Source: Escherichia phage vB_EcoS_W011D
DNA length: 49,847 nucleotides
Sequence record: NC_054893.1
Direction: 5' to 3' (one strand)
Shown here: positions 1,631-48,391 of the stretch, one piece after another
Layout: every line of letters starts with the position of its first letter
Numbering within the stretch: position 1 is the first letter of the stretch
Position numbers and translations under genes: made by a program
The notes under the pieces: model-generated
What the model saw: the letters and a program-made list of their open reading frames with translations, nothing else
What the model was told of the DNA's origin: nothing
Database searches by the model: none

Positions 1631-1650
1631 ATAGCATTTTTTGTTAAACG
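1631..1650 (+). promoter_or_regulatory. Conserved 20-bp box copy (ATAGCATTTTTTGTTAAACG), plus orientation inside the leftward structural block
   Basis: Matches the genome-wide box; followed 18 nt later by TAGAGC; sits between a decoration-like gene and the major capsid gene next to hairpin 1605-1626. Confidence 0.5.
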
Positions 1651-6185: not shown

Positions 6186-6202
6186 GTCCTGATCTCCATA
6201 AT

Positions 6203-6227
6203 AAAAAAGGGCTGGAAAGTCCAGCCC
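6203..6227 (-). terminator. Hairpin GGGCTGGA/TCCAGCCC with T-run on the minus strand, between terL and portal (likely attenuator)
   Basis: Perfect 8-bp stem followed by TTTTTTATT on the transcribed strand. Confidence 0.5.
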
Positions 6228-6240
6228 TGATTATATCAGC

Positions 6241-6260: not shown

Positions 6261-7825
6261 TTCTTCAAACCTGCCAGCTTTTTCATGCGTGCAACTGGAT
6301 CGTCTGCAAGGTTCATTTCGACGTTAACCGCATCAACGATGTTATCAACTATGTCGTCGTGAGGGTGTGAATCGTCGAATGTGAACGCCGCCACCTCTGC
6401 AAGCAATTCCGCTAACATCGGGTGATTCTCCGGTAACGCAACGCGCCCCGCTCGCATTACTGGCGCTGCATCCATAGCGCGCGTTACTTTGTCCGTGTTA
6501 CGCTGAACGGGATTTATATCAATAGGCAATTTCTTTTTAGCGCCCTGAATCAAACCCGTACCGCTAGCCTTATCCTCAACGTGGATTCTGCGCAATGTTC
6601 CACATTCTTTGTTGCGTTTCCAGCACTGATTAACGAAAGCAACAAAGTTTGTGTCAAGATCCGGCGCTTCCCATTTGCCGCGCACGCCGTCGATAAAGTA
6701 AACACGGTTTTTGTACATTCCCCAATAACAAAACACGGTGTAGTCGTTTAACTCTCCTACTTTCTGCGCCGTATCCGCTGTGATGAATGTATATTCAAAG
6801 CGATCTGGTTTTGGTAGTGTGCATTTCTCGCCGCCGCCGTAATACTGGAACCATTCCACCTTGAACACGTTACCACCCAGCGCGATTGGCTGTTGTTGGT
6901 ACTGTGAAAGGAATGTGTATGGATCAGCAAGCCATAACTCACGCAGTGATTTTGCGCTTTCCTTTGCAGGCCAAAAAGAAAAATACTCTACGCCATCAAC
7001 AACAACAGGCTCGCTTGTCAGAACATCGCGATCAAATTCAGGCTTTAACCAGTCAGGAAGCGTTTCGCGGTATTCGCGAGTAACCAGCGCCGGAATGCTT
7101 ACAACCTCAAACTCAATACCACCCATCCCGCCATTTAACAGGAACCAGGTAGAATCATTGACGTGCAACCGCTGCTGAACAACAACACAAGGAGTGGTGT
7201 CTTTCATGCGACGTGATCGGACGGTGTTTTTTAGGCGCGTGTGAATCGACGCTCGTCGCACTGCGGAAAACATATCATCAGGCTTGTCGGGGTCGTCAAG
7301 CGTCAACATTCCCGTAAAACCATCATCCATGTAACCGCCACGCAAACCTGTTACCTGTCCACCAATGGCGCGGGAGTTTAGTTGCAACCAAACTTTGCCA
7401 TCACGATTTAACGCCGTGATATCCTTTGCGCTTGCCTTTGACAGCTTGCAAGGCCAAAGCTCTTGGAATTCTGGCGATCCGATAATCTCTTTCACGCGCA
7501 TTGAGTTTTGTTGCACCAGCCCATCACTAAATGAAAGGTTTAGGTTGCGCACTTTCTTTCGGCGCTGCATACAATGCACTGGCATGTGAATAGAAAAAAT
7601 TTCCGTCTTGCCGGAACCAGGCGTGATATTAAAGATCACGTTTTGCGCTTCACCTGCAATGATTTGCTCAACCTTCCAGCACAAATAGCTAAAATGCCAG
7701 TTACCCAAAAACTTTTGCCCCTGGAGGAGTTGAAACCAAATGCGGATCATTTTTTCAAATGAGATCTCGCTCATTTCTTTAATGGCGCGTTTCTGCGCCG
7801 CTGTCAAATCTTCCCAAATCAACAT
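6257..7825 (-). CDS. Terminase large subunit
   Basis: 522-aa ORF with Walker A-like PGSGKT near the N-terminus and acidic nuclease-type C-terminal half; follows terS by 2 nt. Confidence 0.85.
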   Translation of the reverse strand: MLIWEDLTAAQKRAIKEMSEISFEKMIRIWFQLLQGQKFLGNWHFSYLCWKVEQIIAGEAQNVIFNITPGSGKTEIFSIHMPVHCMQRRKKVRNLNLSFSDGLVQQNSMRVKEIIGSPEFQELWPCKLSKASAKDITALNRDGKVWLQLNSRAIGGQVTGLRGGYMDDGFTGMLTLDDPDKPDDMFSAVRRASIHTRLKNTVRSRRMKDTTPCVVVQQRLHVNDSTWFLLNGGMGGIEFEVVSIPALVTREYRETLPDWLKPEFDRDVLTSEPVVVDGVEYFSFWPAKESAKSLRELWLADPYTFLSQYQQQPIALGGNVFKVEWFQYYGGGEKCTLPKPDRFEYTFITADTAQKVGELNDYTVFCYWGMYKNRVYFIDGVRGKWEAPDLDTNFVAFVNQCWKRNKECGTLRRIHVEDKASGTGLIQGAKKKLPIDINPVQRNTDKVTRAMDAAPVMRAGRVALPENHPMLAELLAEVAAFTFDDSHPHDDIVDNIVDAVNVEMNLADDPVARMKKLAGLKK

Positions 7826-19048: not shown

Positions 19049-19068
19049 ATAGCACTTTTTGTTAAAAC
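19049..19068 (+). promoter_or_regulatory. Conserved 20-bp box copy (ATAGCACTTTTTGTTAAAAC)
   Basis: Followed by hairpin GCGCCC/GGGCGC with TGGTATAAT between the arms. Confidence 0.6.
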
Positions 19069-19126
19069 GAAATCACGCGCCCTGGTATAATGGGCGCATC
19101 AACAAACGAAACAAGGAAATAAAGCA

Positions 19127-21077: not shown

Positions 21078-21093
21078 CACTTTTTGTTAAAAC
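21074..21093 (+). promoter_or_regulatory. Conserved 20-bp box copy (ATAGCACTTTTTGTTAAAAC)
   Basis: Contains the TAG stop of the upstream gene; followed by hairpin GTTGCCG/CGGCAAC with TATAAT in the loop. Confidence 0.6.
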
Positions 21094-21146
21094 AGGGTAG
21101 TATTGTTGCCGTTATAATTAGCGGCAACAAGAAAGGAGATTTTCAG

Positions 21147-27791: not shown

Positions 27792-27811
27792 GTTTTAACA
27801 AAAAATGCTAT
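27792..27811 (-). promoter_or_regulatory. Conserved 20-bp box copy (ATAGCATTTTTTGTTAAAAC)
   Basis: Contains the TAG stop of the VRR-NUC gene; upstream of Dam. Confidence 0.55.
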
Positions 27812-30242: not shown

Positions 30243-30297
30243 TTTAAACCTTTAACGTTGGTTCGTTTGACGCTATACTACACGCCTAAACATATGG

Positions 30298-30318
30298 GTT
30301 TTTAACAAAAAGTGCTAT
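30298..30318 (-). promoter_or_regulatory. Conserved box copy (ATAGCACTTTTTGTTAAAAAC) in the divergent helicase / regulator intergenic region
   Basis: Only copy that does not follow an upstream gene; followed by TAGTATAGC about 14 nt later, upstream of the helicase start. Confidence 0.55.
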
Positions 30319-30331
30319 TGAGGAATTTACT

Positions 30332-30775
30332 ATGAATCGAATCGCTGTTTCAACTGGTGAAGTGGATAAACGCACAATCAATGGTAATAACGGGACACGT
30401 CGCGGAAAAGACAAAAAGCCGCGCAAGCGCAAAACAGGTTACTACGTGCTGAAAGATGAAGTAAAGGCCGGATTGCGTGCGCGCCTTGATATCTTACTGG
30501 AGTATTACGGAACGCAAGCCGAAATGTCGCGCCGTTTGAAGGTGTCGTGTCAGACCATTAACCAATGGAAGAAACGAGGCATGATTTCCGCCAGCGGAGC
30601 GCACAAGGTTCATCAGGACTATAAGCGCCAGGGGTGCAAGGGCTATCGCGCTTCATTCTGCCGCCCCGATCTGAAATTCGATTCAAACGGCAAGCCGTTA
30701 ACACTCAAGTGTGAAAAGCGCGAAATGCTCCGCGTTGTTCGCGCCTCAGATTTCGAAAACAGCACAAATAGCTAA
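30332..30775 (+). CDS. Helix-turn-helix DNA-binding regulator candidate
   Basis: 147 aa; basic N-terminus; HTH-like AEMSRRLKVSCQTINQWKKRGMIS; first gene of the rightward primase operon. Confidence 0.45.
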   Translation: MNRIAVSTGEVDKRTINGNNGTRRGKDKKPRKRKTGYYVLKDEVKAGLRARLDILLEYYGTQAEMSRRLKVSCQTINQWKKRGMISASGAHKVHQDYKRQGCKGYRASFCRPDLKFDSNGKPLTLKCEKREMLRVVRASDFENSTNS

Positions 30776-30782
30776 AACACTG

Positions 30783-30818
30783 ATCGCGTATCTGGTATCA
30801 TCCGGCTACGCGATTTTT
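30783..30818 (+). terminator. Hairpin ATCGCGTA/TACGCGAT plus T-run between the regulator and primase genes (attenuator candidate)
   Basis: Inverted repeat followed by TTTTTTATT on the plus strand. Confidence 0.4.
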
Positions 30819-41699: not shown

Positions 41700-41755
41700 A
41701 GCTTTTAACCTTTTGTGCTGTTTATCGGTTTACACATTATACGGGCGCAAAAAAC

Positions 41756-41778
41756 CCCGCGCAAGGCGGGGTGTGCTT
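41756..41778 (-). terminator. Terminator between tail assembly I and J genes, followed by TATAAT and a degenerate box copy (41702-41721) next to the J start
   Basis: CCCCGCCTTGCGCGGGG then TTTTTTG on the minus strand; ACAGCACAAAAGGTTAAAAG lies between TATAAT and the J start codon. Confidence 0.55.
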
Positions 41779-46998: not shown

Positions 46999-47439
46999 TT
47001 ATTTGCTTGCGTGCATCATTTCAAGCGCTTTGCTTTCCATTATTCGCAAGTCATTCAATGCCATTTCTTCATCGTCTATTTTATAGATTTTGAACAACAT
47101 AGGCAAAACATTGTAATCAAAGCCGTAAGCACCAGCGCCAGCGGATCGCCATTGAGTTTGCATAGCGCAAAACATATCCCATGATTGCATCATGCTTTCA
47201 TCAAATATGATCTCTGGCGGCTCCTCACCCTCATAATCTGCGCGGGTTAATCCTACGGCCTCCAATTCTGCATCAGTGGGCGGCTTCTGGTAAAACAGGT
47301 TAACCGCCCTTTTTAGTTTTTTACGCGTTGCCCTGCCAGCGCGGAAAGATAGGAACCAGTCAGCGCCAATGCTGCGCCTGGGTAAAACTCCACAAGGGTT
47401 TTTGCGTTTTCCTCGTTGAATTCCTCCTCCAGATCCCAT
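46999..47439 (-). CDS. Tail assembly chaperone, -1 frameshift extension (lambda T-like part of a G-T fusion)
   Basis: ORF in the -1 frame overlapping the 3' end of 47313-47636; slippery heptamer A-AAA-AAC just before the G-frame stop. Confidence 0.6.
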   Translation of the reverse strand: MGSGGGIQRGKRKNPCGVLPRRSIGADWFLSFRAGRATRKKLKRAVNLFYQKPPTDAELEAVGLTRADYEGEEPPEIIFDESMMQSWDMFCAMQTQWRSAGAGAYGFDYNVLPMLFKIYKIDDEEMALNDLRIMESKALEMMHASK

Positions 47440-47636
47440 CCGGTAGCCAGTTTCATGATGAATTCCGAATCGGTCACAATGTTTTCAGATTCATACATCG
47501 CTTGCACTTCTTTTGCCTTGAGGTGTCGAACGGTAAACAGGATCGAACCCTCATTACCATCAGGCATGGTGAATTTAACTGGAAGTTTGAAATCTGGAAG
47601 CGGGGCGAGTGTGAGTTTGAATTTAGCCATTGTCAT
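47313..47636 (-). CDS. Tail assembly chaperone (lambda G-like)
   Basis: 107-aa ORF between the major tail gene and tape measure gene; ends VKN-stop right at the slippery site. Confidence 0.65.
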   Translation of the reverse strand: MTMAKFKLTLAPLPDFKLPVKFTMPDGNEGSILFTVRHLKAKEVQAMYESENIVTDSEFIMKLATGWDLEEEFNEENAKTLVEFYPGAALALTGSYLSALAGQRVKN

Positions 47637-47645
47637 TTCTCCTGA

Positions 47646-47665
47646 ATAGCATTTTTTGTTAAAAT
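47646..47665 (+). promoter_or_regulatory. Conserved 20-bp box copy (ATAGCATTTTTTGTTAAAAT), plus orientation inside the leftward tail module
   Basis: Followed 18 nt later by TAGAGT; sits between the major tail gene terminator and the chaperone gene, opposite to the gene direction. Confidence 0.5.
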
Positions 47666-47699
47666 CCAGTTTGATTATTTTGGTAGAGTGATTCTACAG

Positions 47700-47725
47700 C
47701 AATAAAAAAAGGGGCGCAATGCCCC
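47700..47725 (-). terminator. Rho-independent terminator after the major tail protein gene
   Basis: GGGGCGCAATGCCCC followed by TTTTTTTATT on the minus strand. Confidence 0.65.
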
Positions 47726-47731
47726 TTGTGA

Positions 47732-48391
47732 TTAACCTTGCGCCGATGGCAAGAAAGTAAAGCGACCTTTCAGCGAGCAAGAAAGGGAAACGGTTTCCAT
47801 TTCGTTGACTGCGGTCTGTGGGATCTCGTTAAACGAGAGTACGCCAGCCCATGCGCGGATCTCTTTTGCTTTCGGAACGTACATGCGCAATGCTTTAACT
47901 TCGCCGGATTCATCAGCCTTACGCAACAGCGGATAGATCGGGTTGCCGTATTCGTGCGCGAAAGTATACGTTAGAGAAACAGCGCTCTTGTAGGTCGGTA
48001 ACTGCTGCTCCTGGTCGTCGGACAAGCACTGATAAGTGTAATACTGTTGCTCGCCTCCGTCCTGCGCCAGATCCTGGACGCATGGGATCTCAGTCCACGC
48101 GCTGATTTTAGCGATTGACGCGGTAGCGCCAGCTGGAAACACGTTTTGATCTGTGGTGTCGATTCCCTCAGCGGTAATGCTTGCGTTGTCGCTAACCTCT
48201 TTCACTCGCAGAACGCGATCAAGCAATTTACCCCAGGAGGAAACAGTTACAATGAAAATATCACCTTTAGCAAGGCCGGAAGTATCCGCAATGCTCATTA
48301 CTGGATTTTCAGCATTGGTGATCGCTGTTACTTGCTTTTCCGCCTCGCGGGTGCTTTCAATAAAAATCTGTGAACCGTTTGGAAGGTGCAT
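47732..48391 (-). CDS. Major tail protein
   Basis: 219-aa ORF followed by a terminator and then the frameshifted chaperone genes; AAGAGGA RBS. Confidence 0.65.
   Translation of the reverse strand: MHLPNGSQIFIESTREAEKQVTAITNAENPVMSIADTSGLAKGDIFIVTVSSWGKLLDRVLRVKEVSDNASITAEGIDTTDQNVFPAGATASIAKISAWTEIPCVQDLAQDGGEQQYYTYQCLSDDQEQQLPTYKSAVSLTYTFAHEYGNPIYPLLRKADESGEVKALRMYVPKAKEIRAWAGVLSFNEIPQTAVNEMETVSLSCSLKGRFTFLPSAQG

Follow-up and report, generated by a model that had tools for sequence, protein, structure and literature searches.

Introduction

A short repeat is the most prominent non-coding feature of the genomes of T1-like phages. In phage TLS, described in 2024, it takes the form of 21-nucleotide (nt) direct repeats, aaATAGCACnnnTTGnTAAAA, occurring 21 times, some 76 nt ahead of start codons, divided into A, T and G subgroups by their middle bases and found also in T1, Rtp and Rogue1 (PMC11447400). 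A stoperator, an enhancer site or an UP element was offered as a possible role, the function of the repeat being posed as an unanswered question and neither MarA nor marboxes being mentioned (PMC11447400). According to the text the repeats point in the direction of transcription, yet Table S1 of the same paper places one of them, DR7, immediately before the TLS capsid gene and assigns it to the negative strand (PMC11447400). Here we analyse a repeated 18-nt box of the same family, ATAGCATTTTTTGTTAAA, in Escherichia phage vB_EcoS_W011D (NC_054893.1), whose whole record of 49,847 nt is referred to below as the window, with emphasis on two copies that point against the structural genes: copy 1631, next to the major capsid gene and the counterpart of DR7, and copy 47646, next to the major tail gene, a site at which TLS has no copy.

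The marbox is the asymmetric site of the monomeric AraC-family proteins MarA, SoxS and Rob (and of RamA in other enterobacteria). The first three, stress regulators of the host, respond to antibiotics, oxidants and bile salts. Their consensus site, 5'-GCAHWWWWTGYYAAA-3', is made up of an A site, GCAC, and a B site, YAAA, 7 nt apart (PMC6900184), and a looser form of it has also been published (PMC12052159). At class II promoters the site lies forward, centred near -41, with no recognisable -35 (PMC10268841). The micF promoter of E. coli belongs to this class, with structures of Rob and of SoxS bound to RNA polymerase, and Rob contacts -47G and -45A there (PMC9178005). Another arrangement is that of pbpG, which is repressed by a marbox lying over its promoter spacer (PMC12052159). 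On balance, and with some reserve, we favour the view that the two reversed copies in the window are marboxes forming two different devices, each of which would hinder late-direction transcription when the regulator is present.

Results

The repeated box is very probably a marbox-type site

With up to 3 mismatches allowed, the box occurs 13 times in the window, against 0.2 copies expected. Eleven of the copies are co-directional with the genes they precede, as the original prediction, made from the sequence of the window, had stated for the early copies. The remaining two, at 1631 and 47646, are exact and lie on the plus strand within the minus-strand late block, again as predicted (Table 1), and both positions and orientations are also found in relatives, T1 among them. 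The T-variant of the box that these two copies have in common is not confined to them: it occurs in a third copy at 27794 (minus strand), and among relatives the tail site has C in 24 of 25 distinct sequences and the capsid site has both variants.

All 13 boxes, both reversed copies included, fit the marbox consensus at 15 of 15 positions. A search of the window with the published consensus, allowing at most one mismatch, gave 24 marbox-type sites, against 2.6 expected; the 13-copy box is the core of this 24-site family, whose members share GCAC-N6-YTAAA. Phage T1 carries the same family of sites, and in count matrices for the window and for T1 the GCA, G10 and YTAAA positions are invariant and the differences fall mostly at positions 4-9. 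Since these positions are the least-specified centre of the consensus, the pattern of variation fits a marbox. The 11 extra sites differ in their central bases (GCACGAATTGCTAAA, GCACGAAATGTTAAA, GCACAAATAGCTAAA and others) but keep GCAC and YTAAA, the elements touched by the two helix-turn-helix motifs of the regulator; they correspond to the TLS repeat subgroups A, T and G, and 8 of the 11 precede promoters with the same gap of 19-21 nt to the -10. We conclude that the repeated box is very probably a marbox-type site.

Early copies have the geometry of class II promoters

A -10-like hexamer, unaccompanied by a -35, is found 19-21 nt downstream of 20 of the 24 marbox sites, compared to a background of 9%. 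All 19 marboxes outside the structural block have this class II geometry and point with their genes; the four sites lacking it, together with that at 47649 (the marbox of copy 47646), are exactly the five in the structural block. Downstream of the 11 early box copies the hexamer is TATAAT, CATAAT or TATAGT, often with TG before it, and about 30 nt beyond the -10 come a ribosome-binding site and a start codon. The true -35 position in these copies is occupied by AAAAnn. TTGTTA within the box was ruled out as a -35, given that it is 22 nt from the -10 in every copy, which is too far.

At micF, GCACTGAATGTCAAA is separated by 20 nt from TAGAAT, the same gap from GCAC-N6-YYAAA to the hexamer as at the phage sites. 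If transcription starts 7 nt past the hexamer, the G and A of the phage sites land at the -47 and -45 register. The natural marboxes at the E. coli nfo and inaA promoters were too degenerate for the gap to be placed without curated coordinates. The 19 early copies and copy 47646 thus resemble micF and other class II promoters in having a forward marbox in place of the -35, but they differ in being closer to consensus than most chromosomal marboxes and in being repeated about 20 times within 50 kb, and their activation by host factors is a prediction.

Two further features of the early promoters were observed. A shared motif, CATCGAAACGA or CATCAAC, begins close to the predicted start of many early transcripts, about 7-20 nt past the -10, and would be a conserved initial transcribed sequence. 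Between marbox and start, 16 of the 19 have a G+C-rich inverted repeat (-11 to -18.5 kcal/mol as RNA), which often brackets the -10 and places it in the loop (15076-15040, 15806-15770, 19067-19100, 21092-21130, 30777-30815 and most others); a T-run follows that at 30777-30815. These repeats resemble a terminator or 3' hairpin of the upstream gene overlapping the next promoter, and the late copies 1631 and 47646 have none.

Copy 1631 fills the spacer of a predicted capsid promoter

Sequences preceding the capsid gene were aligned from 79 related loci. A late-direction promoter (TTGNNN, 16 nt, TANNNT) is found in 76 of them, with TTGCAC, TTGAAC, TTGACG or TTGACC as -35, a TG-extended TATCAT, TATTAT, TATATT or TATTCT as -10, and an A-rich tract upstream. 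The marbox at 1634-1648 plus base 1649 constitutes the 16-nt spacer of this promoter, in backward orientation; the TG and the first three bases of the -10 likewise come from the end of the box. Of the 79 loci, 44 have a perfect reverse marbox as spacer and 7 have one with a single mismatch; a distant clade has GCACGAATTGCTAAA there, a marbox variant also present at early promoters of the window, and in another the marbox has decayed. Phages with capsid proteins that share only about 75% identity thus have the same 15 bases in the spacer. Because promoter spacers normally have no sequence requirement, this conservation suggests that the capsid spacer is bound by a protein.

Read in the direction of the box, copy 1631 offers little. 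The hexamer at the 20-nt gap is TAGAGC, whose TA derives from the stop codon of the upstream gene and which lacks T-7, a base present in only 1 of 38 distinct relatives. The original prediction had pointed to a sequence shared downstream of the two reversed copies, and TGGTAGAG does trail both after the same 17 nt (1666-1673 and 47681-47688), with a TAGAG- hexamer 20 nt from the box; at the capsid site, however, TGGTAGAGC is the coding end of gene 1663-2472, and hence the likeness to the tail site is not an independent signal. Judged from its sequence, copy 1631 is no antisense or class II promoter. Gene 1663-2472, into which antisense RNA had been expected to run, is also not the decoration gene it was taken for: its homologue in the closest annotated phage is a hypothetical protein, and the decoration protein is encoded by the next gene upstream.

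The likeness is rather to pbpG-type promoters, in which the marbox overlaps the sigma-70 spacer, copy 1631 filling its 16-nt spacer exactly and backward. The rob promoter is likewise reported to be repressed by a marbox within its core. What sets the capsid site apart is its target, a virulent phage's most strongly expressed late gene; its repression is a prediction.

The hairpin at 1605-1626 folds at -12.3 kcal/mol in read-through RNA and at -0.3 kcal/mol in RNA starting at 1621. With the predicted start near 1621 falling within the 5' arm of the hairpin, read-through RNA can form it and the RNA of the capsid promoter itself cannot. A similar arrangement was noted at three late promoters on the minus strand (1605-1633, 6195-6236 and 2499-2530), where the -10 (TATCAT, TGATATAAT and TATAAT) is directly upstream of a terminator-like hairpin and the predicted start lies in its 5' arm, so that read-through RNA would fold and stop whereas their own RNA could not; among the three, folding was computed for the capsid case.

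Copy 47646 heads a predicted promoter facing a late promoter

For the tail site, 80 related loci were compared, and position-by-position conservation was assessed in 25 distinct sequences, the window included. The box points against the late genes and adjoins the ribosome-binding site of the tape-measure chaperone gene; a reverse-oriented marbox between the major-tail terminator and the chaperone gene is present in 31 of the 80 loci, T1 included. In the 25 sequences the marbox is invariant and the 16 nt that follow vary freely, after which comes a -10 with T-12, A-11 and T-7 in 25/25, TG in 22/25, and three middle bases that vary to give 10 hexamers. Such constancy of T-12, A-11 and T-7 around a varying middle is the mark of selection for a functional -10 read in the direction of the box. 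One relative has the GAATTGC marbox variant at this site, indicating that the conserved unit is the marbox and not the 18-mer. Comparative evidence therefore points to copy 47646 as a complete class II-type promoter predicted to fire against the late genes. Unlike micF, it drives no gene and aims into a terminator and an oncoming operon. The earlier proposal that both reversed copies are antisense promoters thus holds up at 47646 and fails at 1631.

The intrinsic terminator of the major tail gene and the hairpin at 1605-1626 both lie where they had been predicted. The former carries a late-direction promoter (TTGCGY, a spacer of about 17 nt holding the T-run, TAnnAT), which follows the strict pattern in 42 of 52 T1-like loci, was recognised by eye in the other 10, and is found in relatives both with and without the box. 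Its -10 (47691-47696, minus) and that of the predicted antisense promoter (47684-47689, plus) are one base apart, and the predicted starts, 47684 and 47696 respectively, face each other with a 13-nt overlap, so that the two promoters could not both be occupied at once. No plus-strand terminator was called after 47696, and the flank past the hairpin is not conserved as a T-run; any antisense RNA would consequently enter the 3' end of the tail gene.

Face-to-face promoter pairs can act by transcriptional interference, pR/pL of coliphage 186 being an example. The predicted tail-site pair would be alike in that the promoters lie on opposite strands and their polymerases could not coexist, activity of one lowering the other. 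It would differ in that its predicted starts are 13 nt apart, so that the footprints would overlap completely, in that the pair sits on an intrinsic terminator, and in the predicted dependence of one promoter on an activator from the host.

Two other candidates at this site were discarded. A small protein made from the antisense RNA was one, the only ATG opening 13 codons without a ribosome-binding site. The other was a late-direction promoter formed by the reverse complement of the box (TGCTATTCA), which has no T-7 and whose start would hit the ribosome-binding site.

Table 1. Features of the two reversed box copies, their neighbouring genes and further marbox-type sites of the window. Promoter elements and starts are predicted.
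Feature	Position	Strand	Remarks
Box copy, capsid site	1631-1648	+	exact match; marbox 15-mer at 1634-1648
-35 TTGCAC, major-capsid promoter	1650-1655	minus	
-10 TATCAT, major-capsid promoter	1628-1633	minus	TG-extended (TGCTATCAT); predicted start near 1621
Stop codon (1663-1665) and last codons of gene 1663-2472	1663-1674	minus	plus strand reads TGGTAGAGC (1666-1674)
Hairpin followed by TTTT	1605-1626	minus	just upstream of the ribosome-binding site of the capsid gene
Box copy, tail site	47646-47663	+	exact match; marbox 15-mer GCATTTTTTGTTAAA at 47649-47663
Ribosome-binding site and start codons, chaperone gene	47628-47644	minus	AGGAG 47639-47643; start codon 47636 or 47630
Extended -10 TGGTAGAGT, putative antisense promoter	47681-47689	+	hexamer TAGAGT 47684-47689, 20 nt past marbox
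Predicted antisense start	47696	+	7 nt past hexamer, from geometry
Intrinsic terminator, major tail gene	47704-47727	minus	stem 47709-47727, T-run 47704-47710; -12.2 kcal/mol, z = -3.2
-35 TTGCGC, late-direction promoter	47714-47719	minus	17 nt upstream of TAGAAT; within terminator hairpin (loop and 3' arm)
-10 TAGAAT, late-direction promoter	47691-47696	minus	predicted start near 47684
Major capsid gene	615-1586	minus	
Gene 1663-2472	1663-2472	minus	homologue labelled hypothetical protein in closest annotated phage
Tape-measure chaperone gene	47313-47636	minus	
Major tail gene	47732-48391	minus	
Eleven extra marbox-type sites	10398, 11699, 12701, 13877, 26344, 26631, 30762, 35412, 6243, 7679, 41704		centres GAATTGC, GAAATGT, AAATAGC, TAATTGC, AAAAGGT
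Marbox	6243	minus	7 nt from -10 of portal promoter
Marbox 15-mer, same as 30762 and 35412	7679-7693	+	inside large terminase gene, reversed to gene; no -10 at standard gap
Forward marbox, one mismatch	41704-41718	minus	about +12 to +26 of predicted late start; holds ribosome-binding site of 1141-residue tail gene

Discussion

Two proposed devices hindering late transcription

The reversed copies, read as marboxes, would work by position. In the early regions a host regulator on the marbox would activate some 19 promoters from the -35 position, as in micF. At the capsid site the regulator bound at 1634-1648 would mask both the TG motif and the spacer, closing the capsid promoter. At the tail site the marbox and TGGTAGAGT would direct transcription rightward, starting at about 47696 and entering the major-tail terminator and then the 3' end of the tail gene, and the late-direction promoter on the terminator would restart transcription into the chaperone and tape-measure genes. 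Since the region would fit a single polymerase, occupancy of the antisense promoter would block this late restart: the regulator-bound polymerase would prevent both re-initiation and read-through. The parts of this explanation that are observed directly are the sequence match, the geometry and the conservation. An alternative already raised in the original prediction, that the box works independently of orientation at the two sites, comes nearer the truth than the antisense reading, the box being best read as a protein-binding site whose effect is set by its position relative to the promoter.

A search of the window by tblastn, with MarA, SoxS and Rob protein sequences, found no homologue (best E = 0.4 over 20 residues), and any factor of this type would therefore come from the host. 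We tentatively extend the idea, as a possibility more than an expectation, to the whole transcription programme: T1-like phages may tie it to host MarA/SoxS/Rob, with about 20 early promoters turned on, structural-gene promoters held down, and the stress state of the host (bile salts, antibiotics, oxidants) setting the early/late balance. The late genes would then be held down through the capsid spacer, the opposing tail promoter, and the core or leader of other late promoters.

The marbox reading gives a testable function to a repeat left unexplained in the literature. If it is true, a virulent phage uses a host stress regulator as an activator and also, via two reversed copies, to restrain the capsid and tail-assembly genes. 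The drug-stress response of the host would thereby be linked to phage development, which bears on the combination of phages with antibiotics and on behaviour in the gut. The repeat family is already known, as are the E. coli promoter architectures involved. In the literature searched, we found neither the identification of the repeat as a marbox, nor an analysis of the two reversed copies, nor the rule of early activation and late obstruction; the search yielded no paper in which T1-like phages are tied to marboxes or Rob, nor any transcriptome for a phage of this group.

Alternative explanations

Could the main product of both reversed copies, as antisense promoters, be a regulatory RNA against the major tail and 1663-2472 messages? 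The complete and conserved box-direction promoter at the tail site, with no plus-strand terminator called after it, makes RNA antisense to the 3' end of the tail gene plausible. We nevertheless think this unlikely, because the capsid site has no usable -10 (TAGAGC, with T-7 in 1/38 and TA from a stop codon) and because past the tail-site start only the terminator and the opposing -10 are conserved, in a flank that otherwise varies and marks no conserved RNA product. We give similarly little credence to binding of the box by a phage-encoded protein, such as the Cro/NinH-like regulator encoded at 30332-30775, which would make the likeness to the marbox coincidental and leave the positional logic unchanged. 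Phages commonly have regulators of their own; this one encodes a small helix-turn-helix protein (its T1 equivalent, ST23, is annotated 'transcriptional regulator') whose gene begins directly behind a box, and which is the sole annotated regulator of the window, its Cro/NinH-like matches being weak and under the Pfam thresholds. The usual target of Cro-like proteins is a palindrome, however, whereas the box is asymmetric; the 15/15 fit to the consensus, the micF gap, the missing -35 and the pattern of variation all suit a marbox, and a factor serving some 19 early promoters must be there at the moment of infection.

Less probable again is a polymerase element that needs no factor, the box serving as an UP-like sequence or an unusual -35 and the reversed copies being incidental: a good spacer in the case of the capsid promoter, a relic in that of the tail. 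The box is A/T-rich and upstream of strong -10s, and UP-like enhancers were suggested for TLS (PMC11447400). TTGTTA is too distant from the -10 to be a -35, as noted above, a spacer has no reason to keep 15 bases across phages with divergent capsids, and at the tail site a matching -10 stands at exactly the right distance from the box in 25/25. The T and A tracts of the box also lie about 8 nt nearer the -10 than UP subsites do. That the reversed copies act as RNA, an A-rich leader sequence by the ribosome-binding site modulating translation or stability, seems to us very improbable. The reverse complement of the box is indeed directly upstream of the Shine-Dalgarno sequence and within the predicted leader at both 47646 and 30301, but the capsid-site box is upstream of the predicted start, and hence absent from the transcript of the capsid promoter, and in the other orientation the box heads about 19 promoters, which points to a role at the DNA level. 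By comparison with their consensus sequences, an UP element, a T4 MotA-type box and a CRP/FNR site were each rejected, on position or on the non-palindromic nature of the box.

Several points weigh against the explanation we favour, in which the reversed copies are marboxes hindering late transcription. Regulator binding, start sites and the direction of the regulatory effect are deduced from sequence. MarA and SoxS are in short supply in E. coli cells that are not stressed, where Rob is reported to be mostly sequestered (PMC12052159), and T1-like phages nevertheless grow well. An activator might not be needed at the early promoters, whose -10 elements are strong and in some cases TG-extended. 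Most phage copies have A at position 19 of the older 20-nt marbox consensus, where that consensus has Y. A marbox inside a spacer could in principle be neutral or stimulatory, and in vitro pbpG was repressed by SoxS but not by purified MarA (PMC12052159). The tail-site box is missing from many relatives, TLS included, and the copy is thus dispensable. A simple sigma-70 consensus scan of the window called neither the capsid nor the tail late-direction promoter, their -35s matching at 3 of 6 positions, and both promoters consequently rest on the comparative evidence.

Other marboxes and promoters of the window

The window (49.8 kb, 46% G+C) is the essentially complete genome of a T1-like coliphage (Drexlerviridae), with 97.8% identity to Escherichia phage PaulSarasin across the tail region. 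The structural genes are on the minus strand, and their capsid and tail modules occupy the left and right ends of the window, respectively. Five marboxes lie in this block (1634+, 6243-, 7679+, 41704- and 47649+), none positioned to activate a late-direction promoter; that at 41704 is the counterpart of TLS DR8.

A module in which a terminator is followed by a restart of transcription occurs twice on the minus strand, at 41736-41764, upstream of the 1141-residue tail gene, and at 47691-47719. In both, the -35 TTGCGC is in the hairpin loop and the T-run is in the 17-nt spacer, and the -10 that follows is TATAAT or TAGAAT.

At 30251-30332 the marbox promoter of the helicase operon, whose -10 on the minus strand is TAGTAT (30275-30280), has its -10 region in common with a promoter on the other strand (TTTAAC, 17 nt, TATACT at 30274-30279) serving the Cro-like regulator and primase genes. 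The predicted starts of the two diverge and are 18 nt apart, and the marbox falls in the leader of the regulator gene near its ribosome-binding site. In the equivalent arrangement in T1 the sequence reads TTGAAT, 17 nt, TATAAT.

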